Assembly: GCA_964549075.1 (NCBI GenBank)
Contig: CAZJUB010000022.1
Location: 1-37,957, forward strand
DNA: 37,957 bases
DNA from: an uncultured archaeon
GTDB taxonomy: Archaea; Asgardarchaeota; Heimdallarchaeia; Heimdallarchaeales; Heimdallarchaeaceae
Direction of reading: 5' to 3'
Part shown: piece by piece, positions 1,183 to 34,980 of the stretch
Position numbering within the stretch: position 1 is the stretch's first letter
Layout of the letters: each line of letters opens with the position of its first letter
Translations under genes and position numbers: made by a program
The notes under the pieces: generated by a model
Database searches by the model: none
What the model was told of the DNA's origin: nothing
What the model saw: the letters and a program-made list of their open reading frames with translations, nothing else

Positions 1183-2366
1183 GTGGAATACGAGAAGTAA
1201 AAGGAATGACTGGTGATGAAGCTATTGCTAACGCTGCTAAACTAGTAAATCCTGATGTTGTTGCAGCTTATCCAATAACTCCGCAGACAATCATTGTGGA
1301 GCACTTCAGTGATTTTGTAAGTAATGGTGAGGTTGATACAAGTTATATTCCAGTTGAATCAGAGCATAGTGCGATGTCTGCATGTGTTGGAGCTTCTTTA
1401 ACAGGAGCACGAGTATTTACAGCTAGTGCTAGTGCAGGTCTTGCACTTATGTATGAGATTCTATATGTGGCTTCAGGATTGAGGTGTCCTATTGTTTTAG
1501 CTGTTGCAAATAGAGCGTTTTCGGCTCCAATTAATATTCATGGAGAATGTACCGACCAAATGGTTTGTCGAGATGCTTCTTGGATATCACTTTTTGGAGA
1601 ATCTGCTCAAGAAGCATATGATGAAACAATTTTATCTTTCAAAATTGCAGAACATCCTGATGTTATGCTTCCGGCAATGTTTGGGGTTGAAGGTTTTATT
1701 GTAACACATGCCCTGGAAAGAGTGGAATCATTGAGCAAACAACAAGTAGAAGATTTTCTGCCAGAATCAAGAGCAGCTAAATATCGTTTTACTCCTGATG
1801 AAATTATGAGTTTTGGCTCTCTTGTTCTTCAAGATTATTATATGGAAATTAAACGCCAACAAGAAGAAGCTATGATTAAAGCTTATGATGTAACCAAGAA
1901 AGTTATGGAAGAATTTACAGAAATGTCTGGGAGAAAAATGGAAGTTATTGAAGAATATAAGTTGGAAGATGCAGAATATGCATTTATTTCATATGGAGCT
2001 ACAGCTGGAAATGCAAAAGCAGTTGTTGATAGACTCCGAAGTAAAGGAGAAAAAGCAGGAGCTTTAAAGATTAGACTGTATAGACCCTTCCCTTCACTAG
2101 ACATTCATGAAGCTTTGAGTGGAATCAAAGCAGTGAGTATTTTAGATAGATCTGCAACCTTTGGATCACCTGGAACAATACTACAGTCAGATCTATCAAC
2201 CGCTTTATACGGTAAAGAAAATGTACCTACTTTACATGGCTATATTAACGGTTTAGGCGGAAGAGTTTTAACACTACCAGAAATAGAAGAAATTTATCAA
2301 AAAACCAAAGAATACCATGATGTCGGGATGACCACGACATTAGATTGGGTAGGGTATAGGAGTTGA
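1179..2366 (+). CDS. porA: Pyruvate/2-oxoacid:ferredoxin oxidoreductase alpha subunit
   Basis: [21 protein letters not shown] and GLGGR motifs; ATGA overlap with porD. Confidence 0.93.
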
Positions 2367-4456
2367 GAAAGATGACATTACAATTACCAAAAGTATCTGT
2401 AAAGGACCTTCAAGAATGGTCAAAACTTGAAGAAGTTTTTACTTCGGGACATAGATTATGTGCGGGTTGTGGTGCTGGTATTATGGCAAGACAGGTGACA
2501 CTTGCAGCAAAAGCACTTGGAGACCCATATATGATAGTTAATGCGACTGGATGTTTAGAGGTTGCTTCAACTATTTATCCTTACACTGCCTGGAATGCTC
2601 CTTGGTTACACAATGCATTTGAAAATGCAGCTGCCACAGCTTCTGGTGCAATCGAAGCTATGAATGCTATGCAAAGAAAAGGTATAATGAGAGAAAAACA
2701 TGTAAATATGATAGTCTTTGGTGGAGACGGTGGGACCTATGATATCGGTCTTCAAAGTCTCTCTGGAGCTATAGAACGAGGGCATGACTTCTTGTATGTG
2801 TGCTATAACAACGGTGCTTATATGAACTGTCTTAGCCTAGATACTCATATATTAACCAAAGAGGGTTTGAAAAGAGTTACAGATCTTAAACTAGGAGAAC
2901 ATGTTTATGCAATGGATCAAAAAACTGGTGAATTAGTACTAAAAGAGTGTAGTGGTATTTATGACAATGGTATCAAAGAAGTTTATGAAGTGATGACTCA
3001 CCATCATAGCATAAAGACAACAAAAAATCATCCATTTTTAACAGTTCAACGAAGTAAAATTAAGGAAGAGAATAAACTTGTGTGGAAAACTCTTGAAGAA
3101 CTCCAAATAGGCGATGAAATAGTAGTTCTTAGAAAATTAGATGAAGGAAAGAGCTACACTTTCAAGGAAATAGAACTCTCACAGCTGGGTGATTACAAGG
3201 TTAATAAACTGAATGAAGCTAAGATACCAGAAAAGAGTTCTCCTGATCTTATGGAATTTTTCGGTTTATTTATTGGTGATGGTTGGGTTAGACCACATAA
3301 AGCTGAAGTTGGATTTTCTCTCCCAGAAGAAACAGAGGGAAGAAAAAGGTTAGTGGAGTTATCAAAGAAGCTTTTTGATTTAACACCTTCTGAAAGCAGT
3401 AAAGATGATGTTTACATCTATTCTGTAAACTTAGCTAAATTTGTTGATTCACTAGAGATAGGAAAAGGTGCAAGAAATAAGAAAATCCCATCATGGATGT
3501 TTAAACTTCCTTATAAAGAAAAGGAAAGCTTGATAAAAGGTTTACTTCTATCAGATGGTTATTTAATTGGTAATAGTAACAGATATGTTTCTGCTAGTTT
3601 TGAACTCCTTAAGACATTAAGATTACTCCTACAAACCATAAACTATAGAGTAGGTAAGATTCATACTCAAAAGAAGAAAAAGGGAACCTTTGTTGTTTAT
3701 AGAAAGTTACTAGAAGACAGTTCATATGGCTATATCTGCTTTAGTAAAAGAGCAGAACCAAATATAAAGAAATATCTTTCTCAAACAAAACAGAGAGACT
3801 TTTTAGCAGACAATATGAACTTCAGAACTGAAAAAATTATTTCTATAGAATATGTTAGAGCTGAGCCTACAATTGATCTTAGAGTTGAAGAAGAACACAA
3901 CTTTATTGCTGATGGTATAGTTGTTCATAATACAGGCATTCAACGATCAGGTGGTACACCTCAAGGAGCTGCAACGACTACTACTCCTGCTGGATCTGTT
4001 ATACCTGGTAAAATCCAATGGCAAAAACCATTAGCAGAAATTATGGCTGGACACGATATTCCGACCTTTACTGCTAGTCCTGCTTACCCTAGAGACTTAA
4101 TGGCTAAAGTTCAAGCTGGTCTTAAATTTGAAGGTCCTGCTTTTATGTTAGTAGATTCTTCTTGTAACTTAGGACAAAGATATCCTCCAGATCAAGCAAT
4201 AGAGGTTTCCAAATTAGCTGTTAAAACTTGTTTCTTCCCTCTTTACTATACTTGCAAAGATGAATGGATTTTAACTGGTATCTCTGCTCGTATAGCTAAA
4301 GATCCAGAAAGAAAACTTCCTGTAGAGGATTATCTTAAACCTCAAGGAAGGTTTAGACATCTGTTTAAACCTGAATGGAAAAAGAAAATGATACAAATAC
4401 AAGATGAAGTAGATGAGAAGTGGAATCGTTTAGTTAGGAAAGCTTCTCTTCATTAA
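2363..4456 (+). CDS. porB: Pyruvate/2-oxoacid:ferredoxin oxidoreductase beta subunit precursor, intein-containing
   Basis: [26 protein letters not shown]...[14 protein letters not shown] (TPP motif split by intein), [11 protein letters not shown]; start may be ATG at 2372. Confidence 0.93.
2828..3931 (+). mobile_element. Intein with LAGLIDADG homing endonuclease (368 aa) in porB
   Basis: Starts CLSLDT, block B TKNHPF, LAGLIDADG-like blocks FFGLFIGDG and [10 protein letters not shown], ends [12 protein letters not shown] followed by +1 Thr; removal restores YMN-TGIQRS. Confidence 0.95.
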
Positions 4457-6107
4457 TCTTGCTCTTTTTTCCTCTTTTTCTTGAAGACCATTTTTTTTCT
4501 AAAGTTTGTTTTGTTGTGAAAGTAAAAGTGCGATATTCTTCATTGATAAAAAGTTTCAAGTCTTTGTAGTTGTTTACATCAAATAAAGCATAATGTATTT
4601 CTATGTTGAATAATAATATCATTGTTAATGCTAGTAGAGAAGTATAGAAAATATGTAACCATTTAACATTGAAAATGATCCAGATGTTTAAAACAAAAAT
4701 CCACATAAATACACAACTGAAAATAAAAAAACTGAAAAGACTCATATAAACCTGTGTTGTTTCCTTTGAGAAAAATGATCCTATTTTTTGTTTTTTCTTT
4801 TTCACCGTATCTATATCTTTATTTTTTAGAAATAAATTTGAGACTCTTTTAGAGAATTTTATGATCTTGATGTCCAGAGTTTCCCCCCAACACGCTAAAG
4901 CGATAATCACGAAAGGAATGAAATATGAGTCATAGTACTTGTAATTCCCTCTAGATAAGAAGATATGGCTTCCAATTGTAAACATTGCAGTATAAGAGAA
5001 AAGGTTAATTTTATCTTGTCTCATTTTTTTTGCAGATAATAACATTACACAACAGCAAATAAAAACAAAAATTAACAATGGTAAATACATTTGGTTAGCA
5101 TCTTTGTACAAAACTGCTGCATTATACCAGAAAGTTCTTCCTGTCTCTTGATACCGATATAAAAACGCATGAAACGGTGTTGTAGACCAGAGGATATGGT
5201 CACCATCTATACCAAAATGTGTATTTTCAGTACCTCCAGGCCATAATTGCTGAATAAAATATCGTATCGGTGATATAACTAACCAAGGCAATGACAAAAC
5301 AACATATGTTATGATACCTATTATGAGATATTCTACACCTTTTCTAAAATTGTTTCGAGCAACATAAACCAACCAGAGAGGAGCCAAAAATAATGCATTA
5401 AGTTTTGTTAAGATAGCTATTGTAAGAAAGATAGCTGATTGTTTATGTTTTTCTCTACTGAGAAAATAAATAGAAATGACTGTAAATGTTGTAAACATAT
5501 AGGTGTTCAAGTAAAGTGTATCATTATAAAAAAGCACAATAGGCATAAAGATGAACATAATTGAAGCAAGAAGAGAATAGACTTGATTCATAATATTTCT
5601 CTTTCTATCATCCTTCTTCTTTCGCAAAATAAGATATATAAACACTGTAGTTATTGAATCAAAGATAATTGGAGCAGAGACAACAGAAAGCCAGGTTTTT
5701 TGAGAAATTGTCATACCTGGGAAAATAATATCAATAAAAACAGAGATTATAGTCAAACCATAAACAAATATTGGACCATATACATATCCACTTAATGGAA
5801 AACCTCTATCTAAGAGATAAGGATTCCATTGCTCGTATTTGAATGCATTTAGATACTTAACATAATATGTTTGAGCATCAGGAAAAATTTCCCAGGTATA
5901 TGCCTCTGGATTGTTATAACTATAATAAAGAGCATTTTGAATAGATACAGAAAGATCATAGTTAGCATAAAACCATTCTCGAATGTAAATTCTAATAGCA
6001 ATTGAAATGGTAAATAGAACTATAACTACTGAGGTTTGAAAAAGTATGTTTTTCCAATCTTTTTCCAATTGTTTTTTAGCTTTTTCAAGCACTCTTAAGT
6101 TAGGCAC
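4434..6107 (-). CDS. Polytopic membrane glycosyltransferase, GT-C fold (GT87/PIG-M-like mannosyltransferase)
   Basis: About 11-13 hydrophobic segments; PD..YY and YVYGP in first external loop, AILTK motif; overlaps porB 3' end convergently by 23 nt. Confidence 0.6.
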
Positions 6108-6233
6108 AATATACCCATTTCAAATGTATTGTTAAATTTTACCTAATAGAACTTGAGTATAAAAACTCCAAAGAAATTTCCTGACATGCAAGTAAACTGC
6201 AATGAAATTGAACACTTTTAAAAGTTCTTACAC

Positions 6234-6299
6234 ATTCCTTCCTCTGGCAAGGCTTATCCATTCGTGGCATGCTTCATAACCGGATAAGGGAGGGAGAAT
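6234..6299. ncRNA. Candidate structured RNA or cis-element (unassigned)
   Basis: GC-rich island in AT-rich intergenic DNA; CTTATCC(6253-6259)/GGATAAG(6282-6288) and CCTTCC(6237-6242)/GGAGGG(6289-6294) nested stems; TTTTAAAA upstream near 6216-6223. Confidence 0.35.
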
Positions 6300-6345
6300 T
6301 ATCACCTTTCACGGATAGTTTTATATTTGTCTTTATTTTGTATTC

Positions 6346-8196
6346 TTGTATTATATGAATAATCATTCTCTATCTAAAAAGACTACTGGTTCATTTTATA
6401 CACCTACTTACATAGTAGATTTTATGGTGGACCGAATTTTTTACTACCTTAATTTGGAAGGACATATGTCTATGAAGTCGTTTCAAACATTCAAAAAATC
6501 ACTCAATAACTTGACTTTTTGTGATCCTTCTTTAGGTAATGGGAATTTTATAATAGGTGTTTTAAAACGAATTTGGAATGATTTAAAGACATTTACTACA
6601 ATAAGACCAGAGAACAAGAATGCTTTCTTTAGAAATTTTTTTGAACATAATATCTATGGTATAGAGTTAAATCCTAAAGCACTGGAAGAATGTAAAGAGA
6701 AAATAATTTTCTTTTTTCCAATCTTATATAATTGCTCACCTGATAACCTCAAAATTGGTAATAGCATAGTTGACACAGATTCCATTGAAATATTAGCACC
6801 TGAGGATGCTGAAAAAATAAGATCTTTTAATTGGATTGAGCAGTTTAAACCAAGAACTACTTTTGATGTCATAATCGGAAATCCTCCTTATTATAATCTT
6901 AAGAAAATGGCTCTTATAGACCAAAATGCGAAAATACTTTTTCATTACTTAAAAACTTCTAACATATGGAGCGATTATCATCGCTCTTCTTCAGATATAT
7001 ATTACTATTTCATCTTTCAAGCTTTCAAATACCTATCTGATGGAGGTTTACTCTCTTTTATACTCCCTAATTATTGGATAGAAAATAAATATGCTGATAT
7101 TCTGCGAGAGAAAATTTCTGAAAAACAAATTCTTGAGCTTCTAGATTTAAGCAATTTTAAAATTTTCAAAGATAATAGTCGATGGCTTAACATTACAAAT
7201 TGCATTACACTGATTCAAAATAGTTCTCCAACACATGAAGTCAAAATTGCTCGAAATATTCCCAAAATGATTTTAGAAAATTACAAAAAAGAGAAAAATT
7301 CTATAGACAGGTACTTTTTTGAGATTGAACATACGAATTTAAATAAGGAAAAATGGATCCTTTCTCCAAATTTGCCTTTTCTTAAAAAACTAGAAGATAA
7401 AGGTAGAATTACAACACTCGATAGTGAAGCTAAAATCTTCCAAGGAATGTCTCCAGGAGTCAAGGATATTTTTGTTATGTCACAATCTAAGGCTAGAGAA
7501 TTAATGCTCGAAAAAGATGTTTTAGTTCCTTTTATTACTAATAGTGGTATTAAAAGATGGATAATAGATACTAACAGCTTAAAAGCTGCAATTCTTCCTT
7601 CACAAATAAGTGACCTCAATAATTATCCAAATGTGAAAAACTATCTAGAACACAATTGCGAGAAATTATTAGCAGGACCAGATAGAGAAAGGTTACTTTT
7701 AAAAGAGAAAATAAGATGGTTTGATTATAGTGTTTATAGAAATCTAGAGGCTTTCAATAATAATAAAGAGAAGATTATGGTTCCTTACAGAAGCTTAACT
7801 CCTCGTTTTGGTCTTGATGAAAATTGCACATTTGGAGCAACTGATATATATGCTATTCTCCCAAAAAATCACGATGATTTACATTTTCTTTTAGGTATTT
7901 TGAATAGTGAAATTGTTCATTTTTGGTACACCGAAGCAGGTAAGAGAAAAGGTAAAATGTTGGAGTTTTTTAGTGATCCATTAAAAAATGTCCCCATACC
8001 AAAAACTGATGAAAAAAAGACATTATCAGCTATTGTAAAAGATTTAATCAGAGCATCAAAAAATTCTTCACTTAACAAAAAATGTTTCTCTAATCTTGAA
8101 GAAGAATTGAATATTGAGGTTGCTCGATTATATGGTGTTGACTACACTTATTTCAGAAACAAAATTTTCTTTAAAAGTAATAATTCAAACAAATGA
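6346..8196 (+). CDS. N6-adenine DNA methyltransferase, Eco57I/TaqI-like (gamma class) with C-terminal target-recognition domain
   Basis: GSFYTP, DPSLGNGNF (motif I), YGIE, IIGNPPY (motif IV), LLGILNS in TaqI_C-like region; start may be ATG 6355. Confidence 0.88.
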   Translation: MYYMNNHSLSKKTTGSFYTPTYIVDFMVDRIFYYLNLEGHMSMKSFQTFKKSLNNLTFCDPSLGNGNFIIGVLKRIWNDLKTFTTIRPENKNAFFRNFFEHNIYGIELNPKALEECKEKIIFFFPILYNCSPDNLKIGNSIVDTDSIEILAPEDAEKIRSFNWIEQFKPRTTFDVIIGNPPYYNLKKMALIDQNAKILFHYLKTSNIWSDYHRSSSDIYYYFIFQAFKYLSDGGLLSFILPNYWIENKYADILREKISEKQILELLDLSNFKIFKDNSRWLNITNCITLIQNSSPTHEVKIARNIPKMILENYKKEKNSIDRYFFEIEHTNLNKEKWILSPNLPFLKKLEDKGRITTLDSEAKIFQGMSPGVKDIFVMSQSKARELMLEKDVLVPFITNSGIKRWIIDTNSLKAAILPSQISDLNNYPNVKNYLEHNCEKLLAGPDRERLLLKEKIRWFDYSVYRNLEAFNNNKEKIMVPYRSLTPRFGLDENCTFGATDIYAILPKNHDDLHFLLGILNSEIVHFWYTEAGKRKGKMLEFFSDPLKNVPIPKTDEKKTLSAIVKDLIRASKNSSLNKKCFSNLEEELNIEVARLYGVDYTYFRNKIFFKSNNSNK

Positions 8197-8988
8197 ACAT
8201 ATTAACCGCCATTCATCATAGCCTGCTAAATACAATCTTACATCAGGAAAATTTAATTCTTTAAGAACTAAATAGACTAATGCTGATTGAGGTGCAGACT
8301 CACAAAAAACAACTATGTTCTTATCAGGTGTTATTTGTCGAGCTTCAAGTTCTGCAAAAAGAAGTTCTTTATCTCTTATAATAAAATAATCTGGCTTTTC
8401 TTCGAATAAATCTAAATACCAAAAATGTATGGCTCCAGGAATACTTCCACCTTGTTGATCTAAGAGTAAAGCATACTCTGATCTATTGTCAACGAATGTG
8501 TATTTTCCTGTATGTAGATCAATAAGTATTTCGTCTTTGGTGATTAGGATATTTTCATTTGTTTCTTTTAGTTCGATATTACCTCTAGGAAATTTAACAA
8601 GTTCTGTTGTCAGCTCATTTTCTTCCTTCTCCCATTTAGAGTAGGCTCCATCAAGAAGAATAACATCGTTGAAACCAAAATAATGAAGAGTCCATGCAGC
8701 TAAAGAACAGTTTAGATTGAAAACATCATCAACTAAAATTAGTTTATCATCTTGATTTATACCTTTTTCTTGGAGATAGTGACTAAGCTTATTTCTATCT
8801 GGAATAATGTTAATGCCATCTTCATCTTGTTGAGTGAAATAATTATTGTCAATATGTATGGAATTTTTTATGTGTCCTTTGTCAAATTTATGTTGCTCCC
8901 TCAAATCTAGAATTTTATACTGATTCATATAGTTATTTGATTTGATTTCAGCTATGGAAACAAAATTCCTAAACTTAGTTTCACTCAT
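8185..8988 (-). CDS. Tandem-domain rhodanese/sulfurtransferase
   Basis: LDLR..F..GHI, LDGAYSKW, DNRS, GSIPGA, active-site VFCESAPQS, YLAGYDEW. Confidence 0.88.
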   Translation of the reverse strand: MSETKFRNFVSIAEIKSNNYMNQYKILDLREQHKFDKGHIKNSIHIDNNYFTQQDEDGINIIPDRNKLSHYLQEKGINQDDKLILVDDVFNLNCSLAAWTLHYFGFNDVILLDGAYSKWEKEENELTTELVKFPRGNIELKETNENILITKDEILIDLHTGKYTFVDNRSEYALLLDQQGGSIPGAIHFWYLDLFEEKPDYFIIRDKELLFAELEARQITPDKNIVVFCESAPQSALVYLVLKELNFPDVRLYLAGYDEWRLICSFV

Positions 8989-26027: not shown

Positions 26028-26723
26028 CTAAATGCTAATCTTACTTTCTATTCTTTTTCTATCCTGTTGCTTTATTTCGTTCAAACCTACAAGCATATCT
26101 GGATTGAATTTACTCCAGTTGACACAATTTTCATGATACCAACGAAAAGAAAGATTTTCTTGATAATATGATGGTTCACCTAACCTCAAAGAATCTCTCT
26201 CAATGTAATTTTTACATTTATTGCATTTTGAAACTCCACTTTTAGCATACTCTAGTTTCCATTTGTTTTCTCTTACTTTCATAAATAGATTTTTGGTTGA
26301 TTTTTGAATTATTTTTTCTAGAATTTCTTTTGGATTATTTCCATCTAAATCATTTGAATCGATTTTCAAATGAAAAATATCAAAATTCCCAACAAAAAAT
26401 ATTAGATTTGCAGGTTTGGTGTATTTGAGATCACCATTAATTTTTACATGTTTAGGTAAAATCTTATTTTTCATTATATATCTAGCTAAGGTAGATGAAA
26501 GCATTTCTGATAACTGTTTTTTATCATATTTCTGTACTTGACCAGTTTTGATCCTGCCGTAAACGTTTCTGATCACAGTTCTTTCGATTTCTTCAATATA
26601 TTCCCGTTTTTTGATAACAAAGAAAAATCCCTCAGGAATTTCCTTTTCAATTTTCATTTGTATGAAATTTCTGGGATCTATGGAATATCCCCATTCTGTG
26701 TCTTCATCTAGATTTATTTTCAT
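26028..26723 (-). CDS. Protein with C-terminal PARP-type zinc finger and unknown N-terminal domain
   Basis: EYAKSG.SKCNKC...I....LRLG...WYHENC...GL.E....D...I matches zf-PARP (C-x2-C...H-x2-C). Confidence 0.85.
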   Translation of the reverse strand: MKINLDEDTEWGYSIDPRNFIQMKIEKEIPEGFFFVIKKREYIEEIERTVIRNVYGRIKTGQVQKYDKKQLSEMLSSTLARYIMKNKILPKHVKINGDLKYTKPANLIFFVGNFDIFHLKIDSNDLDGNNPKEILEKIIQKSTKNLFMKVRENKWKLEYAKSGVSKCNKCKNYIERDSLRLGEPSYYQENLSFRWYHENCVNWSKFNPDMLVGLNEIKQQDRKRIESKISI

Positions 26724-27812: not shown

Positions 27813-28199
27813 ATGAGCGAAAGAGAAATAAAATTTTACAAATTACTAGCTAAAAAATACGAGCTAGCAGAACAATTTTACAATTTGAAGGAAGATATTG
27901 ATGAACTTGAAGCTAAAAAAGCTTCTTATCAGAAAAAACAGGCTTTAGTAAATAAAGACAAACAAGATCATATGGTTAAACAATCAAAACTCAAAGAAGA
28001 AGGAAAATTGGATAAGGCTCTTAAACAAGAAAAAACTATAAAGGAAAAAGAACAAGATATTCTTGAGGCAAAGAAAAAAATTCAAGATATAAAGAAAAAA
28101 CTTGAGAAAAAAAGGCCTGAGATTGAAAAAATAGAAAGTGATTTGAAATCTGTTGATTCAAAATTACAGCTAGATTTTCCAAACAAATTCCAGAATTAG
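27813..28199 (+). CDS. Coiled-coil (helical hairpin) protein
   Basis: K/E/Q-rich heptad pattern over about 115 aa with one central Gly (EEGKLDKAL). Confidence 0.7.
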   Translation: MSEREIKFYKLLAKKYELAEQFYNLKEDIDELEAKKASYQKKQALVNKDKQDHMVKQSKLKEEGKLDKALKQEKTIKEKEQDILEAKKKIQDIKKKLEKKRPEIEKIESDLKSVDSKLQLDFPNKFQN

Positions 28200-28346
28200 G
28201 TTTTAAGTAAAATACAACTCTTTTTTATTTTTATACGAACAATAATTCGTTCTATAATCCTTTAAAACAAAGTTAATATAATGATTCTTGGACTAAATAA
28301 CTGTTGATTTAAGGTTCAAATCGAATCCATCGTTGTAAAATAAATA

Positions 28347-28877
28347 GTGATGAAAATGCGTAAACAAAGAATAATAAAGGATTACGATGCCCTCAGAAAA
28401 TTGCACAAAGAAGGGGTTATTGCCCAAGTTAAAGCATTTCCTGGAAAGAAGAAATCTATGGATCATTTAGCTGTTGGTTTCATCGGACCAAAAGGCACAC
28501 CATATGAAGGAGGAAAATATAAATTGGAAATATTCTTCGGATCAAATTATCCCTACAAACCTCCATTTGTAAGATTACATACACCAATTTTCCATCCTAA
28601 CTTTTGGCCAGATCCAAAGGAATATCCTGGTAAACGAAATATCTGCTTGGCATTAGTAGATAATGAATTGATTGGTAAACATGATGGTTGGTCTCCATCC
28701 AAAAATATTACCTCGGTTATTTATTCTATCTTAGCTATGTTCAACATCGATGGAGCATATGTTAATCCTAAAGATGTTTTCAATAAAAAAGCAGCAATTG
28801 AATTTCTGAATGATAGGACCAAATTCATAAAGAAAGCAAGAGCTGTTAATAAGAAATTTGCAAATTCATTTTGGTGA
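28347..28877 (+). CDS. Ubiquitin-conjugating enzyme E2
   Basis: RIIKD, GPKGTPYEGG, YPYKPP, IFHPN, catalytic ICL, WSP motifs. Confidence 0.95.
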   Translation: MMKMRKQRIIKDYDALRKLHKEGVIAQVKAFPGKKKSMDHLAVGFIGPKGTPYEGGKYKLEIFFGSNYPYKPPFVRLHTPIFHPNFWPDPKEYPGKRNICLALVDNELIGKHDGWSPSKNITSVIYSILAMFNIDGAYVNPKDVFNKKAAIEFLNDRTKFIKKARAVNKKFANSFW

Positions 28878-28914
28878 AAATCAATTAAGTATTTTAATTT
28901 ATGGAGTTTAAAAG

Positions 28915-29634
28915 ATGTCAAATGATGAAAATGAGCTTCCAGAAGAATATAAGTTTCTATTAAAGAAGATAGAAGCATTGGAAAAAGCGCTGGAATTTTA
29001 CAAAATTGAAAAAGTCGTTAAAGATACTGAAAGAGAAGAAGAAATAAGTGCAGAAACAATCACTGAAGAAGATCTCCGAATAGAACCAAAACCTGAGATT
29101 GTTATTAATCCAAAAGCATACCTCAAACTAGCAAAGCATTCATTAACTTATGCTAATCCATCTATCCCGAAAAGTGACTGGGTAGAAGTAATTGGACTTC
29201 TTACAGGAAAAATTAGAAATGAAGAAACACCTTTAGAGCAGATATTTGTTGAAGATTATTGGCCAGTCGATCAAGGTGATGCTGTCAGTGTAGAAATTGT
29301 TGATCAAAAAATATTTTCGGAGATCTTTGAGAAAAAAAACAGCGAGCATTTCATCATCGGTTGGGCTCATTCTCACCCAAGTTACACTCCTTTTCTTAGT
29401 GGAGATGATCTCAGAACACACCGTCGATACCAGACTTTTTGGAATAAATCGATTGCTTTAGTTATAGATCCTCTAATGATAGCACCTAACAATTATGGAA
29501 TAGGTGTGTTTAGAATTCATAAAGATAAACAAAATTATTACGAATTATCTACTGAAATACAAGGAATGAGTAGTGAAGCATGTTTTGAATCAATTAACAT
29601 GTTTATGAAGAATCAACTAAATATAGAAGAATAA
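28915..29634 (+). CDS. JAB1/MPN+ (JAMM) metalloprotease, Rpn11/CSN5-like
   Basis: EVIGLL.G, IGWAHSHPSYTPFLSGDD (H-x-H-x7-S-x2-D), ALVIDP. Confidence 0.93.
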   Translation: MSNDENELPEEYKFLLKKIEALEKALEFYKIEKVVKDTEREEEISAETITEEDLRIEPKPEIVINPKAYLKLAKHSLTYANPSIPKSDWVEVIGLLTGKIRNEETPLEQIFVEDYWPVDQGDAVSVEIVDQKIFSEIFEKKNSEHFIIGWAHSHPSYTPFLSGDDLRTHRRYQTFWNKSIALVIDPLMIAPNNYGIGVFRIHKDKQNYYELSTEIQGMSSEACFESINMFMKNQLNIEE

Positions 29635-29638
29635 TTTA

Positions 29639-30751
29639 TTGGATTGTAGAGAATTGGAATTAAATAACTGGAAAACCTATTTAGCAATCACTATCATCGG
29701 AGTAACAATAGGTGTACTTTTTTTAGCAATAAATGGTAATTTGCCAACTGCTCTAATGGTTTTTTTCATTACTCTGTACCTAGTTGTTGCTTTAAAATTC
29801 CTACTTGAAAGACATCACTATAAAAAACATAATTCTGTCTTAGCTAGTACCCAATTTCTCTTACTCCCTTATGTAGTTCTGTTAATGGGAAATTATATAT
29901 CTCCTATAGCTTTGACAGTAGATATCTATGTTATAAGTGTTAATTCAACTGATGTTTTCTTCTTAAATTTAATCTCAATTTCGTTAATAATTCCAGTTAT
30001 AATTCTCTCTCTGCTCTTTAGCAAATATTATTCAAATAGATGGCCTGCAATGGCCATTAATAGAAAAATCAAAAGAGGAAGGAAATTTCCTTTCTTATTT
30101 CATTCTGTATTCATTATTACCTTCTTAATCGGATTTTTCATTAATTGGCAAATTGATTTTGTTTGTTTCATTTTTGTTATTCTTTATTTTGTCTACATTT
30201 TTAGGTACTTCATTGTAGTAGCAATTAACAAATCCCGAAAAGAAGTGAGAGTGAGTGCAAGAACTGCAACAAGAGCTTCTAGTACAAGATCTACAAGTGC
30301 ATCTCAGAGAAGTGGTCAAGTTCCTGTAGCTTCTAGAAGTGGTCAAAGATCAGTTTCAGCTCGTTCCACTAGTGCAACTTCTTCATCTAGAAGAAGTAGT
30401 TCAGCAAGAATCGATCGCGGAATTGATGCTACAACAGCGTCAAGAAAAACCGTTAAAACAACTAAAACTACAACACCAGTCTCTAAAAGTATCTTTCCAA
30501 TTGGTACACCAAAGAAAGAGGAGATGAAATGTATAATTTGCTACATGGATTTTGATAAAAAAGATACAAGAAGAATTATTCTGTGTCCACATTGTAAATA
30601 TCCAGCTCACGAAGACGAATTCTTAAACTGGTTCAATAAATCAAGATTATGTGCAAGATGCAACCAACCTATCTCAACTAAATATGTAAACAATCCTAAA
30701 TATAGAATATCTGTAAAAGTTTATATCGAAAAAGTGATTGAAAAGATATAA
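29639..30751 (+). CDS. Polytopic membrane protein with C-terminal RING-like domain (putative membrane E3 ligase)
   Basis: About 6 TM helices in first ~195 aa, Ser/Arg/Thr linker, C-x2-C-x14-C-x2-C-x4-H-x2-E-x3-W-x6-C-x2-C at 30530-30661. Confidence 0.8.
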   Translation: MDCRELELNNWKTYLAITIIGVTIGVLFLAINGNLPTALMVFFITLYLVVALKFLLERHHYKKHNSVLASTQFLLLPYVVLLMGNYISPIALTVDIYVISVNSTDVFFLNLISISLIIPVIILSLLFSKYYSNRWPAMAINRKIKRGRKFPFLFHSVFIITFLIGFFINWQIDFVCFIFVILYFVYIFRYFIVVAINKSRKEVRVSARTATRASSTRSTSASQRSGQVPVASRSGQRSVSARSTSATSSSRRSSSARIDRGIDATTASRKTVKTTKTTTPVSKSIFPIGTPKKEEMKCIICYMDFDKKDTRRIILCPHCKYPAHEDEFLNWFNKSRLCARCNQPISTKYVNNPKYRISVKVYIEKVIEKI

Positions 30752-30816
30752 AAGTTACAAATGCCAATAATTTAAAAAATAAGTGTATATGAACATTAAA
30801 AGAAGAAGGTTTAACG

Positions 30817-31410
30817 ATGAGGACAATAACACAGCTCTCTACTGCGTTTTTTCTTTCACTACCATTGTTTGGTGTAGCTATTTACTTCTTTATCCAGAAT
30901 GATAATGATAGGGGAAAGGTTTTCATTTTCATAGCAATTTTCGCTCTTTTATCACTCATCATTGTGATACGTAGTATCTACTATCTTAGGCATAGTGCGA
31001 CTTTTAATGAAATCTTTTTCGTATTTATTATACCTCTAGTTCCTGTTACACTCGTTCTGATACAAATTCTATTAGGAATCTATAATGATCCAATTCCAAT
31101 AGTTACTCAGAGTATTTTTGACATTGGTAGTACAAGCTATAGTTTTTACATTAATGTAATTGATTTTATTCTTCTTCCATTTTACATCATTGCTAATTTC
31201 CTTTTACTCAGAACATTTATACGCTATCCTTTCATAAGATTGAAAGGTACTAGCGAAAAAGGAATCCCTCCAAAACTATTTGGATTTTTGTTGATGTTAA
31301 TTATTCCAGCGACTTATATACTGTTATCCTTCTTCTATCTGGAAAATCTATTTCTCATGGTTTTTGGAATAGTTTATTTCTATACTGGACTTCTAACATT
31401 ATTTGTTTAA
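30817..31410 (+). CDS. About 6-TM membrane protein, probable paralog of the upstream RING protein's membrane domain
   Basis: Similar length and hydropathy; shared F[FY][LI]N[LV]I...L[IL]P..I...R[WY]P segment. Confidence 0.65.
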   Translation: MRTITQLSTAFFLSLPLFGVAIYFFIQNDNDRGKVFIFIAIFALLSLIIVIRSIYYLRHSATFNEIFFVFIIPLVPVTLVLIQILLGIYNDPIPIVTQSIFDIGSTSYSFYINVIDFILLPFYIIANFLLLRTFIRYPFIRLKGTSEKGIPPKLFGFLLMLIIPATYILLSFFYLENLFLMVFGIVYFYTGLLTLFV

Positions 31411-31427
31411 ATTAAATTAAAAGAAAA

Positions 31428-32147
31428 TTATTTCGGTCTTTTTTGTTTTGGCTTTTTTTGTGTAGGAAGTTTTTGACTTGGAGTTTTTTGTTTTGGTTTC
31501 TTTTCCTCAATTATTTCAGTTATCTCTTTTGTAGCAGGAGCTTCTCTCTCTCTTTTCTCTTTTATATTCTCTTCTTTGGGGATAGTTCTTGATTCTTGTT
31601 TCTCAGTTTCTGAAAATTGATCTTTGTTACTGGTCGGAGGAATCTCTTCTTTCTTCTCTCTTTCCTCCTTCTCCACAGCTTTCGAATCTAAGATCTCAAT
31701 CTCTCTAAATTCCTCTTTTCTAGGTGGTGCAGACTCTTTTTTCTCCTTTTTCCTAGATTCTTCATCATCAGGAATTATGTTTTTTTCTTTAGTTTTCTCG
31801 AATTGATTCTGCTTTGGAATTTTTGATTTTGGTATTTTTGATTTAGGAATGCTTTTACTGCTTCTTTTAGTTTCAGTGAATCTTTCTGAGCTTGGTTTTT
31901 TAGATTGAATCTGTTCCTCAAAAATTCTCTTGTTTGTTCTTCTGTTTTGTTTTAGTTTAGACTTACTAGGAGCTGGAGTCTTATTGTGTATTTTTTCTTT
32001 TTTAGGAGGTAAATTAATTTCTTCACTAATATGTTGTTTAGGGATTTTAGAGGAAGGTGTCTTTTGTTTAGGAATCTTTGAATCAATTGGATGTTTATGT
32101 TTTGGTCTCTTTGAAGAAGGTTTCTTTTTCTTAATTTTCTTGCTCAT
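31428..32147 (-). CDS. Lys/Glu/Pro/Ser-rich intrinsically disordered protein with SKIPK/KTP repeats
   Basis: ATG 32147 preceded by AAAGGTGA RBS; 239 aa, 4x SKIPK, 3x KTP; strong purine-rich coding-strand bias. Confidence 0.75.
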   Translation of the reverse strand: MSKKIKKKKPSSKRPKHKHPIDSKIPKQKTPSSKIPKQHISEEINLPPKKEKIHNKTPAPSKSKLKQNRRTNKRIFEEQIQSKKPSSERFTETKRSSKSIPKSKIPKSKIPKQNQFEKTKEKNIIPDDEESRKKEKKESAPPRKEEFREIEILDSKAVEKEEREKKEEIPPTSNKDQFSETEKQESRTIPKEENIKEKREREAPATKEITEIIEEKKPKQKTPSQKLPTQKKPKQKRPK

Positions 32148-32388
32148 ATGTAAGTCACCTTTAGTTTGCCTTTCAATTGGATTGAGAAAGTCTACTGATT
32201 TTATACCATTTTTTTTTATTTTCTCATTCAATTCTGCTAATTATTTTGAAGTTATCGAGATTTTAGATAGTTTTGAACTGAGTTTCTATTTATTTTCCTA
32301 AATAATAATGTTTTTTATACTGAAATAGATAATTTTTTAATATTCCGATGTAATATAAGTTAGTTGTATTAAAACAGGATTGATTAAT

Positions 32389-32739
32389 ATGAGCGATGAA
32401 TTTGAAGAATTATCCTTTGATGATGAAGAAGAAGAATTTGAAGAAGAAGAGATTATCTCTAAAACACCTGCAAAATCCAAAACTCCTGCAAGTAAGAAAA
32501 TAAGCGTTTATTTCCAAAGCACAATTGGACCAAGTCCAAAACAAGAAAAACTCGTTGTAGCTACAGATGCACCAATCGGTGATATCAAATACACTGTTAG
32601 CCAAATATTTGGTTTACCTCCAGATGAGTTTCACTTATCACATGCAGGAAGAACCTGTGATCCCGATGATACTTTAGAAGATTATGGTGTTGAAGATGGA
32701 GATACAATCTTACTTATCCCTGTCTCTACAGCTGGATAA
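32389..32739 (+). CDS. Ubiquitin-like modifier with acidic N-terminal extension, ending ...IPVSTAG
   Basis: Beta-grasp pattern ISVYF...IGDIK..VSQIFGLPP....L.HAGR......TLEDYGVEDGDTILL matches ubiquitin's GIPP...L.FAGK...TLSDY.I....T..L; adjacent to E1. Confidence 0.88.
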   Translation: MSDEFEELSFDDEEEEFEEEEIISKTPAKSKTPASKKISVYFQSTIGPSPKQEKLVVATDAPIGDIKYTVSQIFGLPPDEFHLSHAGRTCDPDDTLEDYGVEDGDTILLIPVSTAG

Positions 32740-32795
32740 GAAAAACTATTTCTCTAGAAAATGATGATAGTTTCTCTTTTCTTTTCATTTTTTTT
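32740..32795 (+). terminator. Hairpin plus oligo-T terminator after the Ubl gene
   Basis: AAACTAT/ATAGTTT stem followed by TTTTCTTTTCATTTTTTTT. Confidence 0.45.
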
Positions 32796-32824
32796 AATAA
32801 ATTTAATATACTAAATATTGAGAG

Positions 32825-34084
32825 ATGCATATAATGAGTAAAAAAACTGATACTGAGTCTAATTTTTTTAACGAAGCTTTTTCAAAAGAAGAAAGAACGA
32901 GGTTAGATAGACAATTAAGGTTACCTGGATGGAATCAGAAAGCTCTGAAAGAATCTACTGTAGTTGTTGTAGGAATAGGAGGATTAGGAACAGAAGTTGC
33001 TAAAAATCTAGCTATGGCTGGAGTTGGAACCTTACATCTGATAGATTTAGATATTATCGAATACTCAAATTTGAATCGGCAGATTCTTTTTTCAGATGCA
33101 AACGAAGGTGAACCGAAATCCAAGGTAGCAGCAAGAACTCTAAAACAAATTAATCCTTATAGTAGATATATCTGGCATCATTCGAACCTTGAAGATATCG
33201 ATCCTGAAATCTATGTTTCAGCTGACCTTCTTATATCTGGTTTAGACTCAGTTGCTGCAAGAGGTGAACTCAATAGAAGAGCTGTTCAATATAAGAAACC
33301 TTTGATAGATGGTGGAACAGTGACTTACTACGGACATGTTTATACGTATTTTCCAGGTAAAAATGCTTGTTTACAATGTGATCCACAACCGGAAAGAGAA
33401 AGAGAGACCTTAGCAGCATGTACTTTGGTGGGGATTCCAAGAAAAAGATCTCATTGCTTACTCAAAGGACAACTGTTCTTTGAATCAAAGCATAATAGAC
33501 CTCCTGATACTTCAGTAAAGGAAGAGATGGATATTGTACTTGAATATGCAAACAATTTAGCAAAAGAATATTTTCCACAAGAAAGCTTATTTTCTATTGA
33601 TGAAGCGGTAAAGATGGTTGATCAACATGATCCTACGATTATTACAATCAATGCGGTAATTGCTTCTCTTCAATCACAAGAAGCTTTGAAAATACTTCAC
33701 CACTTGAAAGGCATCGAACTTGGTTCTATAAATCTCGAATACGCCATTTATAATGGATTAATTGGAAAATTCTTCTACTTTGAGAAACCTCCTAATAAGA
33801 AATGTACTCTTTGTGGTGAAAATGCAGCTGTAATAGAAAAGCTGAAGTTACCCAGAACAACAACTGTGGAAAATATTCTATCAATAATACGAAATAAAGG
33901 ATATACCTATGATTTAGACTTTCTACCATCATTCTGGAGAATGGATATGAAAGATCCAGAGGAAGTGAAGCTACATCTAACCTTGGGAGAACAAGGAATT
34001 CGTAATTATGAAACATTCTATATTAGTGGTGTTAATAAAGATAAGAAAGAAGTGGATTTTTATATCCAACTCCAATTGATATGA
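32825..34084 (+). CDS. Ubiquitin-like activating enzyme E1 (ThiF adenylation domain, catalytic-Cys domain, C-terminal ubiquitin-fold domain)
   Basis: RLDRQ, GIGGLG, D.D.IEYSNLNRQ, DGGT, Zn pairs CLQC/CTLC, catalytic CTLVGIPRKRSHC (compare Uba3/Uba2 CT....PR...HC). Confidence 0.93.
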   Translation: MHIMSKKTDTESNFFNEAFSKEERTRLDRQLRLPGWNQKALKESTVVVVGIGGLGTEVAKNLAMAGVGTLHLIDLDIIEYSNLNRQILFSDANEGEPKSKVAARTLKQINPYSRYIWHHSNLEDIDPEIYVSADLLISGLDSVAARGELNRRAVQYKKPLIDGGTVTYYGHVYTYFPGKNACLQCDPQPERERETLAACTLVGIPRKRSHCLLKGQLFFESKHNRPPDTSVKEEMDIVLEYANNLAKEYFPQESLFSIDEAVKMVDQHDPTIITINAVIASLQSQEALKILHHLKGIELGSINLEYAIYNGLIGKFFYFEKPPNKKCTLCGENAAVIEKLKLPRTTTVENILSIIRNKGYTYDLDFLPSFWRMDMKDPEEVKLHLTLGEQGIRNYETFYISGVNKDKKEVDFYIQLQLI

Positions 34085-34202: not shown

Positions 34203-34400
34203 TTATACTGCAGATACATTGGTTGCTTGTGAACCTCTATCAGTTTCTTCAATCTCAAATTCAACTTCAGTACCTTCTCTAAGATCATAAAATTCTCCTT
34301 CAACTCCAGATCTATGGAAGAAGATGTCCTTTTCGTCTCCTTCGACATTGATAAAACCGTAATTGCGGTCATACCATATTCTCTTAATATTACCTTTCAC
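34203..34400 (-). CDS. Cold-shock domain protein
   Basis: RNP1 NYGFI, RNP2 DIFFH, V.FEIE...RG.QA.NV; AGGAGG RBS before GTG. Confidence 0.93.
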   Translation of the reverse strand: MKGNIKRIWYDRNYGFINVEGDEKDIFFHRSGVEGEFYDLREGTEVEFEIEETDRGSQATNVSAV

Positions 34401-34596: not shown

Positions 34597-34980
34597 TTAA
34601 AAACCTTGCAGTAATACATAGAAGATATTGTATATCAACCTTTGAAGCTTACCATCTTGTTGTGTTTTCTTGTAAATTTTTTCTAAATCAGCATCTTTTC
34701 CAGCGCTATCCTTTAAGGAATACTCACCATCTTTCCTTGTGTATATAAGATTAAATTCATCTTCAAAGAATTGTTTTAAATAGCTTATTTTTCCTTCTTC
34801 AAGAACATCTTCAAATTCTAAGTAAGATAAGCCTAATCCTTCTTCAGGTGGATGTACTCCTTGAATTATGAAATTTAAAACAATGTCTTTATACTTGCAC
34901 TTCGGACATTTCAGGTGTTCAAACAAAGTTTCATATTCACCATCAAATTTTGTGTCGCATCTCTTACAATAAAACTTCAT
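34597..34980 (-). CDS. Zinc-ribbon hypothetical protein
   Basis: N-terminal CKRC...CPKC. Confidence 0.7.
   Translation of the reverse strand: MKFYCKRCDTKFDGEYETLFEHLKCPKCKYKDIVLNFIIQGVHPPEEGLGLSYLEFEDVLEEGKISYLKQFFEDEFNLIYTRKDGEYSLKDSAGKDADLEKIYKKTQQDGKLQRLIYNIFYVLLQGF

Follow-up and report, generated by a model that had tools for sequence, protein, structure and literature searches.

A Heimdallarchaeial variant of the archaeal ubiquitin operon with an E3 ligase probably built into the cytoplasmic membrane

A putative operon for ubiquitin-like conjugation

The window considered here, a stretch of 37,957 nucleotides, is the whole of contig C22 of a 3.2-Mb Asgard genome (89.7% complete), and the named homologues of its proteins are mostly labelled Heimdallarchaeota or Heimdallarchaeaceae. 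Between positions 27813 and 34084 it contains eight open reading frames (ORFs), which include those of a predicted ubiquitin-like modifier (Ubl), an E1, an E2 and a JAMM metalloprotease, together with a RING protein bearing six predicted membrane helices (TM-RING), a second six-helix protein (TM2) and a protein rich in Lys and Pro (K/P-rich protein). A preliminary description of this DNA had proposed a complete Ubl-E1-E2-RING-JAMM locus with a polytopic RING protein, and Pfam searches, hydropathy analysis and AlphaFold2 (AF2) models bear this out: the E2, JAMM, six-helix RING, six-helix partner, Lys-rich, Ubl and E1 genes are all real ORFs at the places given for them, with the correction that the Lys-rich gene lies on the minus strand. 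In its putative Gly-ended Ubl, E1, E2 and JAMM protease, the locus resembles the archaeal operons that encode ubiquitin (Ub), E1, E2, a RING protein and Rpn11. The eight ORFs are as follows.

27813-28199, plus strand: coiled-coil protein, 128 aa; no Pfam family
28347-28877, plus strand: E2 (UBC fold); Pfam UQ_con, 94.5 bits, 5.6e-27
28915-29634, plus strand: JAMM/Rpn11-like metalloprotease; Pfam JAB, 50.5 bits, 2.2e-13
29639-30751, plus strand: TM-RING, putative E3, 370 aa; sub-threshold Pfam matches only
30817-31410, plus strand: TM2, 197 aa; no Pfam family
31428-32231, minus strand: K/P-rich protein; no Pfam family
32380-32739, plus strand: Ubl, 119 aa; Pfam ubiquitin, 33.5 bits against a cut-off of 25.4
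32825-34084, plus strand: E1, 419 aa; Pfam ThiF, 191 bits, 2.5e-56

The membrane-embedded RING protein

TM-RING is predicted by hydropathy and an AF2 model (predicted local distance difference test score, pLDDT, 72.5) to consist of a six-helix membrane domain at residues 1-200 (window 29639-30238), a disordered linker rich in Ser, Arg and Thr at about residues 200-290 (pLDDT <50 over 210-281) and a C-terminal RING at residues 298-341 (window 30530-30661). As read from the sequence, basic residues are concentrated in the N-terminal region, the loops that follow helix 2 and helix 4, and the part behind helix 6; the positive-inside rule then predicts a cytoplasmic location for the RING and for the two loops that are most conserved. 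The RING ligands follow the pattern C-x2-C-x14-C-x2-C-x4-H-x2-E-x10-C-x2-C, which is invariant in 25 family members, as are the individual residues C298, C301, C316, C319, H324, E327, W331, C338 and C341.

A RING fold is supported for the modelled C-terminal domain. When the AF2 model was compared with the PDB using Foldseek, the matches listed (ranks 1-50, with gaps) each covered just 50-90 or so alignment columns and were nearly all chains of RING or U-box E3 domains, the others being large RING-containing assemblies (IFT-A, GATOR2 and SEAC); probabilities reached 0.99, with no match listed at E <= 0.001. These matches speak against the alternative that the finger is no E3, being instead a degenerate zinc finger that, for example, tethers JAMM or Ubl to the membrane, with any conjugation proceeding independently of an E3. 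That alternative, which we judge very unlikely, draws on three features of the sequence: the finger has just seven classical ligands, with an invariant Glu (E327) in the sixth position at the exact x2 spacing; it scores below both relevant Pfam cut-offs (Prok-RING_1, 17.4 bits against 29.1, with a best score of 22 bits among 19 TM-RING relatives; zf-RING_2, 17.1 against 27.3); and the residue after the last Cys is Asn or Ser in 25/25 sequences, leaving no basic 'linchpin'. RING domains are generally held to carry a basic linchpin residue at this place. On the other side stand, besides the fold matches and the invariance of Glu327 at ligand-6 spacing, a nearly invariant Ile after the first Cys (Ile300) and an invariant Trp331 four residues after the sixth ligand position, presumably the positions where known RINGs contact E2, as well as the constant coupling of the TM-RING gene to that of E2.

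NCBIfam gave no match for E2, JAMM, Ubl, TM2, the K/P-rich protein or the RING domain, and for TM-RING as a whole its sole row was a match in the linker region (16.5 bits against a cut-off of 80). Weak, sub-cut-off matches to PFF1_TM in two of 19 distant TM-RING relatives were set aside as compositional. Four TM-RING matches from the same genus (in genomes G013, G017, G002 and G022) each include one TAA inside the match. A soluble RING paralogue of 190 aa, whose C-terminal RING shares the ligand pattern of TM-RING and whose N-terminus forms a zinc ribbon, is encoded elsewhere (L029 4547-5119, contig C1); it is kept across the genus as ORFs of about 190-200 aa with no apparent neighbour from a Ub system.

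A RING-less paralogue of the membrane domain

TM2 likewise has six predicted membrane helices (hydropathy and an AF2 model; pLDDT 84.1, predicted template modelling score 0.78), and its conserved cytoplasmic motifs are YYxKHxATFNE and RYPFIR. Profile comparison was based on alignments of the TM2 family (A1, 16 sequences), the TM-RING family (A2, 25 sequences) and the membrane domain of TM-RING alone (A4). With hhalign, A2 and A1 align end to end (residues 14-190 against 12-188; 167 columns) with a probability of 95.5% and E 1.4e-8. When A2 was cut to the membrane domain the score was 51.9 (E 2e-7), compared with 13.2 for a reversed TM2 alignment and at most 16.8 for 22 column shuffles; because these controls score low, the similarity does not reflect membrane-protein composition. 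The two families also have in common the cytoplasmic YYxKHxA motif after helix 2. Judged by these profiles, TM2 and the membrane domain of the ligase are paralogues, TM2 being without a RING, and a hetero-oligomer of TM-RING and TM2 would be the natural consequence. Complex prediction for the TM-RING membrane domain with TM2 (from A4 and A1) returned a score of 0.00, which amounts to no verdict and is evidence neither way. Among 80 homologues of TM2, those with names come from Heimdallarchaeota, Kariarchaeaceae, one 'Methanobacteriota archaeon' and one subsurface-metagenome record; a search for longer, fused forms found none, which is weak evidence.

Distant relatives of either membrane domain were sought by structure and by profile. 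Foldseek against the PDB gave no match with E <= 0.001 for the TM2 model and nothing above noise level for the TM-RING membrane domain; ESM Atlas gave no usable match for either; Pfam searches (E <= 1) with the individual sequences of A4 and A1 gave no consistent family, so the six-helix domain stands without a Pfam family; and PDB profile searches with A4 and A1 yielded nothing meaningful. The A4 profile matched 42 of 1.84 billion representative proteins (E <= 0.001), of which about 30 are 360-465 aa long and carry the domain N-terminally, while the remainder look like fragments; among the most distant, those that bear names are labelled Hodarchaeales or Hodarchaeota, plus one 'Promethearchaeota archaeon'.

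These searches bear on the suggestion that the locus performs quality control akin to endoplasmic-reticulum-associated degradation (ERAD), with TM-RING as a ligase of the Hrd1/gp78 type and TM2 as a Derlin-like or channel partner, such that misfolded membrane or secreted proteins would be tagged for extraction and proteasomal degradation. The polytopic N-terminal domain with a cytoplasmic C-terminal RING invites this reading, and the preliminary description had pointed to a structural comparison with Hrd1 and Derlin. The Foldseek rows for likeness to Hrd1, Doa10 and Derlin are at noise level, and the ERAD reading for this reason stays an analogy; a HRD1 row that recurs with both models is not independent evidence, because the two models are of paralogues. 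Besides the empty searches and the small number of profile matches, the RING ligand pattern is not that of RING-H2, and Pfam scans of the loci (12 genes of the window and 15 in Hodarchaeales and Kariarchaeaceae-type loci) found no Cdc48, Derlin/rhomboid or Sel1 gene. A role in quality control, as first put forward, or in retrotranslocation is thus unsupported, and we consider it unlikely.

Conservation and phyletic range

In 25 loci around TM-RING homologues from other genomes, onto which the window's proteins were mapped by tblastn, JAMM lies beside TM-RING in all 25, and E2 is present in 24, E1 in 23, TM2 in 21 and Ubl in 20, the misses falling mostly at contig ends. The order Ubl(-Ubl)-E1-E2-JAMM-TM-RING-TM2 is syntenic across these loci, which represent four families of Heimdallarchaeia including Hodarchaeales; the linkage of the membrane genes to E1, E2 and Ubl, proposed at first from this locus, has in this way come through a gene-neighbourhood survey of relatives. 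Within the window's genus the genes run E2-JAMM-TM-RING-TM2-(K-rich, reversed)-Ubl-E1, and in families f3, f5 and f6 they run Ubl-Ubl-E1-E2-JAMM-TM-RING with TM2 directly after or near. All genes are on one strand in the f5 and f6 loci, a layout that is probably ancestral. Family f3 is equated with Kariarchaeaceae because one source gives that name to a TM2 homologue, and f5 and f6 are taken to be Hodarchaeales because some of the most distant members are labelled Hodarchaeales or Hodarchaeota.

Among 400 Asgard genomes sampled across the phylum, the A4 profile matched 52, all in the four families (f1, 22/30; f3, 9/12; f5, 19/22; f6, 1/2) and none of the 334 scored from other families, including 0/135 in the largest. 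The operon is present in one copy per genome, and identities fall with taxonomic distance. In five relatives that lack the membrane domain (completeness 89-95%; two are single contigs), no Ubl was found (0/5), and only a distant E2 paralogue (38-42% identity) is present. Ubl, E2 and TM-RING have been lost together, in few events among kin on which no statistical claim is placed. In one Kariarchaeaceae-type locus (L021 5171-7363), a 730-aa hybrid histidine kinase with a receiver domain is encoded between E1 and the E2-JAMM-TM-RING-TM2 block.

The soluble enzymes

The E2 has an HPN motif at residues 83-85 and its predicted catalytic Cys in the sequence NICLA (98-102). Its best sequence matches in the PDB are Ubc13, UBE2T and Ubc9, with the NICLA Cys aligned to ICLDIL of Ubc13. 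The JAMM protein combines an intact E...HxHx7Sx2D motif (E91, H152-D165) with an N-terminal helical extension, and its best PDB match is 6fju ('26S proteasome regulatory subunit N11-like protein', 3.4e-13), which we take to be the Caldiarchaeum Rpn11 homologue; the motif is aligned, with HSHPSYTPFLSGDD and EVIG of the metal site matching this structure. In one locus (L034 1367-2094) the JAMM gene maps as two tblastn pieces, which may reflect a frameshift or an assembly error. The E1 contains an adenylation domain with the Gly-rich loop GIGGLG at 50-55, CxxC pairs at 182-185 and 327-330 and a candidate catalytic Cys at 199, and its approximately 85 C-terminal residues may be a ubiquitin-fold domain. 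Its best PDB matches are SAE2, UBA3 and UBA1 (1.5e-34; 122 bits for the eukaryotic E1 match), and its LAACTLVG aligns to FPGCTIRN of SAE2, the Cys of which is presumably the catalytic Cys173.

This same E1 provides one of the arguments for regarding the locus as a conflict or defence module, comparable to bacterial E1-E2-JAB systems (Bil; Cap2/Cap3 of CBASS, the cyclic-oligonucleotide-based antiphage signalling system) or to 'selfish' Ub-like operons. Its adenylation domain matches PADLOC E1-E2 models with up to 65.8 bits. According to abstracts on the subject, E1-E2-JAB operons act in bacterial immunity, and the Aravind group has proposed that mobile Ub-like operons with JAB are selfish elements (PMC3417536). 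The PADLOC match is, however, at superfamily level and weaker than that to eukaryotic E1; JAB reaches just 19.5 bits, and PADLOC yields nothing for E2, RING, TM2, Ubl or the K/P-rich protein. A single operon per genome, an order kept across four families, identities that drop with taxonomic distance and ordinary flanking genes (CorA, MscS and a cold-shock protein, by Pfam) also argue against such a module, and a defence system is highly unlikely.

The modifier

The Ubl consists of an acidic N-terminal tail of about 45 residues (EFEEL at 7-11; KTP at 28-30 and 34-36), a predicted beta-grasp domain and a C-terminus that reads PVSTAG, ending in AG in place of a di-glycine. On Pfam it scores higher as ubiquitin (33.5 bits) than as YukD-like (24.6 bits). 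The preliminary description was right to call it a non-GG modifier: of the 20 Ubl ORFs that a pattern search recovered from the window and its relatives, every one has STAG at its C-terminus, followed by 0-2 residues (one residue in 4/20, two in 1/20), and the terminal Gly is invariant in the 13 sequences aligned (A3). A conserved Gly terminus with occasional short extensions would fit a conjugated modifier matured by JAMM. Work by Fuchs from 2018 is said to have found that Rpn11 processes pro-Ub in Caldiarchaeum.

Exactly two KTP motifs are present in 17 of the 20 Ubl ORFs; the three without them are a second Ubl paralogue. This paralogue lies just upstream of E1 in Kariarchaeaceae-type and Hodarchaeales loci (L018 3790-4098; L019 10510-10809; L022 1670-1924; L031 12429-12905), and in the Hodarchaeales locus L031 its N-terminal region is long and STAG is followed by three further residues. 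The EFEEL sequence (window 32398-32412), a Phe-x-x-Leu in an acidic run, is kept in both paralogues across families; it resembles an Atg8-interaction (LIR) motif, in appearance only.

The Lys- and Pro-rich protein

The K/P-rich protein is 24% Lys and 10% Pro, is predicted to be disordered and contains seven K-[T/I]-P motifs; its start is probably Met29 (position 32147). In 28 of 28 pairwise comparisons, third codon positions differ at about 0.5, compared with 0.2-0.3 at positions 1 and 2, and because of this excess the ORF can be regarded as a translated coding gene. By tblastn the gene is detected solely within Heimdallarchaeaceae (the loci of the genus and L035). A screen by composition (K >= 17%, P >= 8%, at least 100 aa) places a K/P-rich ORF beside TM2 or TM-RING in 19/25 loci, and extends to Kariarchaeaceae-type (for example, L019 5842-6492) and Hodarchaeales loci (for example, L031 7068-7817). 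Each of these proteins has 4-10 K-[T/I]-P motifs, compared with 0.4-1.4 in 500 composition-preserving shuffles; the observed count is reached by at most 4/500 shuffles in 19 of 20 proteins, and by 18/500 in that of L019. In the whole genome just two of 2963 ORFs of at least 100 aa pass the composition screen, and only that of the window has at least four motifs.

On the strength of its position and composition, the K/P-rich gene is taken as part of the system. The occurrence of K-T/I-P in both the Ubl tail and the K/P-rich protein suggests, as a hypothesis, a shared recognition or acceptor motif. A comparable logic is known from the SUMO consensus site and the tail of SUMO2/3.

Other ubiquitin genes of the genome

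The only other ubiquitin gene of the genome, on contig C18, encodes a protein of 78 aa that ends in KGGS and is 22% identical to the Ubl. It belongs to a cluster (L027, G000:C18:29000-41066, 1454-8775) in which, with names assigned by reading the sequences, two ESCRT-III genes (ESCRT, endosomal sorting complex required for transport), Vps4 and Vps25/22-like genes accompany a 470-aa fusion of a ubiquitin E2 variant (UEV) domain with Vps23/28 and a short E1 of 335 aa. It is of the type of the ESCRT-Ub cluster described by Hatano 2022 (PMC9192718). Another E2-like gene, on contig C2, lies among RadA and apparent queuosine-synthesis genes, as named by sequence reading with no family search. No second complete E1-E2-RING-JAMM cluster was found in the 89.7%-complete assembly. 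The locus had at first been suggested to be distinct from the canonical operon; since it is the only complete cluster found in this genome, it is better seen as the lineage's own version of that operon and not as an extra one.

The presence of the ESCRT cluster raises another interpretation, namely that the membrane ligase marks cargo for sorting by UEV/Vps23-28, as ligases of the MARCH or Rsp5 type do in eukaryotes. The cluster has no canonical E2, RING or JAMM gene, and the window's operon could therefore supply those activities. Moreover, a study of Asgard proteins reports that UEV binds Ub and that an E1/E2/RING cascade modifies UEV-Vps23 in vitro (10.1101/2023.07.25.550441). Nevertheless, the ESCRT-linked Ub is a different gene with its own E1, the two loci are on different contigs and binding of the AG-ended Ubl by UEV would be pure conjecture, making a function in ESCRT cargo tagging quite unlikely.

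Genes flanking the operon

The gene in front of E2, which the preliminary description had counted with the locus, does exist and encodes a coiled-coil protein with only weak SMC-like coiled-coil matches. It occurs in 7/11 same-genus loci, at varying positions, and in 0/14 loci from other genera or families. This shifting place and the absence beyond the genus led to its rejection as a core part, and it is probably only loosely linked. Beyond it, on the minus strand at 26028-26723, lies a gene whose 231-aa product carries a PARP-type zinc finger at its C-terminus (PF00645; 48.1 bits, with a cut-off of 39.3). In style this archaeal finger is that of a eukaryotic DNA-nick sensor, and its gene also adjoins MscS and CorA in L009. 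At the E1 end, cold-shock-domain genes (window 34203-34400, minus strand; L010-L012 and L026), often in at least two copies, regularly flank the operon within the genus, as does a 127-aa zinc-ribbon gene (34597-34980).

Proposed mechanism and significance

We think it rather probable that the locus represents the archaeal ubiquitin operon in its Heimdallarchaeial form, passed down vertically across the class and with the E3 built into the cytoplasmic membrane. Several observations weigh against this. The finger has seven classical ligands with Glu in the sixth position, and falls short of both Pfam cut-offs. The system is dispensable, whole genera being without the operon. E1 is 3.5-5 kb from the other genes in two Kariarchaeaceae-type loci, and TM2 is separated or was not found in three loci. 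The K/P-rich gene was undetected in 6/25 loci; of these, L018, L033 and L034 end at a contig edge within the operon, and the contig of L020 ends just past JAMM on the other side.

A scheme can be drawn from the gene identities, catalytic motifs, predicted topology, paralogy, synteny, phyletic range and joint absence set out above; all its biochemical steps, the pairing of TM-RING with TM2 and the part played by the K/P-rich protein are what we infer from these. E1 would adenylate the C-terminal Gly of the AG-ended Ubl, load the Ubl onto its own Cys and hand it to E2. The E2~Ubl conjugate would dock on the RING, tethered by a flexible linker of about 90 residues to the six-helix membrane domain, which would act together with TM2, probably as a hetero-oligomer, through the conserved cytoplasmic loops. 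The Ubl would then be moved onto lysines in targets on the membrane's cytoplasmic side. JAMM would both trim the 1-3 extra C-terminal residues that some Ubl genes encode and remove the tag. The strongest candidate for a dedicated acceptor or adaptor is the K/P-rich protein, and the K-[T/I]-P motif that it has in common with the Ubl tail may mark acceptor lysines.

A bolder extension of this scheme, which we regard as unlikely, is that the six-helix RING and its twin represent an ancestral membrane E3 predating the split of Heimdallarchaeaceae, Kariarchaeaceae and Hodarchaeales. The AG-ended Ubl, dedicated to this E3, would decorate a purpose-built Lys-rich acceptor and its own KTP tail at K-[T/I]-P, building a membrane-tethered poly-Ubl scaffold, and the whole would be a prokaryotic forerunner, in function or even by descent, of Hrd1 and other eukaryotic ligases with a membrane-bound RING.

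Membrane-embedded RING ligases, as in ERAD and MARCH-type sorting, are treated as eukaryotic inventions, and those archaeal ubiquitin operons that have been examined experimentally to date rely on a small soluble RING. The present operon, compact and self-contained, with a predicted membrane E3 and conserved across Heimdallarchaeia including Hodarchaeales, could show how membrane-bound ubiquitin ligases arose. Hodarchaeales have been proposed as the sister group of eukaryotes. This placement is contested, as the title of one article indicates (PMC12222021). The isolation of Hodarchaeales strains in culture has been reported (10.1101/2025.02.26.640444). Since the operon comprises seven small genes suited to expression and reconstitution, and also supplies a candidate for a built-in substrate and one for an acceptor motif, it opens the first encounter of ubiquitylation with membranes to direct testing.

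Comparison with known systems

A Ufm1 system, an idea suggested by another source (PMC12962969), was considered and rejected: there was no Ufm1 match in Pfam, the E2 is a canonical UQ_con protein and the E1 matches SAE2/UBA3 (1.5e-34) far better than UBA5 (2.6e-13). The ESCRT-linked Ub system of Asgard archaea, as outlined in two sources (PMC9192718; 10.1101/2023.07.25.550441), is present in the same genome on contig C18. That system differs in its GG-ended Ub, its 335-aa E1 and its lack of a JAMM, RING or membrane partner, whereas the window's operon contains no ESCRT gene.

With the eukaryotic ligases Hrd1/SYVN1, gp78 and Doa10/MARCH6, TM-RING has in common a predicted polytopic membrane domain and a cytoplasmic RING that would recruit a soluble E2. 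The architecture of Hrd1 and gp78 is matched in the N-terminal position of the polytopic domain (1-200), the C-terminal position of the cytoplasmic RING (298-341) and the positive-inside topology, but their RING-H2 (C3H2C3) is not matched by the ligand pattern of the 25 TM-RING sequences.

Closer in gene content are the bacterial Ubl-E1-E2-RING-JAB operons reportedly predicted by Burroughs, Iyer and Aravind (Mol Biosyst, 2011), in which Prok-RING_1 (PF14446) proteins with membrane helices are said to occur. To our knowledge, the function of these operons has been predicted and apparently never tested. They resemble the present operon in placing a RING protein with membrane helices beside Ubl, E1, E2 and JAB. 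Here, by contrast, the RING scores below the PF14446 cut-off, the six-helix domain has no Pfam family, the Ubl is ubiquitin-like and not YukD-like, and the lineage is archaeal, with vertical inheritance within one class.

The nearest counterpart is the operon for Ub, E1, E2, a small RING protein (srfp) and Rpn11 in Caldiarchaeum subterraneum and Asgard archaea (Nunoura 2011; Hennell James 2017, PMC5654768), which encodes the same five activities in one operon. Such operons, with their small soluble RING, are described there as known and reconstituted (PMC5654768). The likeness extends to a eukaryote-type E1 with a Cys region, an E2 with HPN and Cys and a JAMM protein nearest to 6fju. In place of the small soluble RING, the operon described here has a RING that forms the C-terminal domain of a predicted six-helix membrane protein of 370 aa; in place of a GG-ended Ub it has an AG-ended Ubl with a tail of about 45 residues and two KTP motifs; two Ubl genes are present in Kariarchaeaceae-type and Hodarchaeales loci; and a RING-less membrane paralogue and a K/P-rich protein have been added. 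Full-text searches of the literature, with supplements such as the asCOG tables, which may list these families, outside their scope, gave no description of a polytopic RING, a RING-less twin, a K/P-rich partner or a STAG terminus. The operon thus appears, from its gene content, to be a variant of the known archaeal ubiquitin operon that is distinguished by an apparently undescribed membrane E3, its RING-less twin and a K/P-rich partner.

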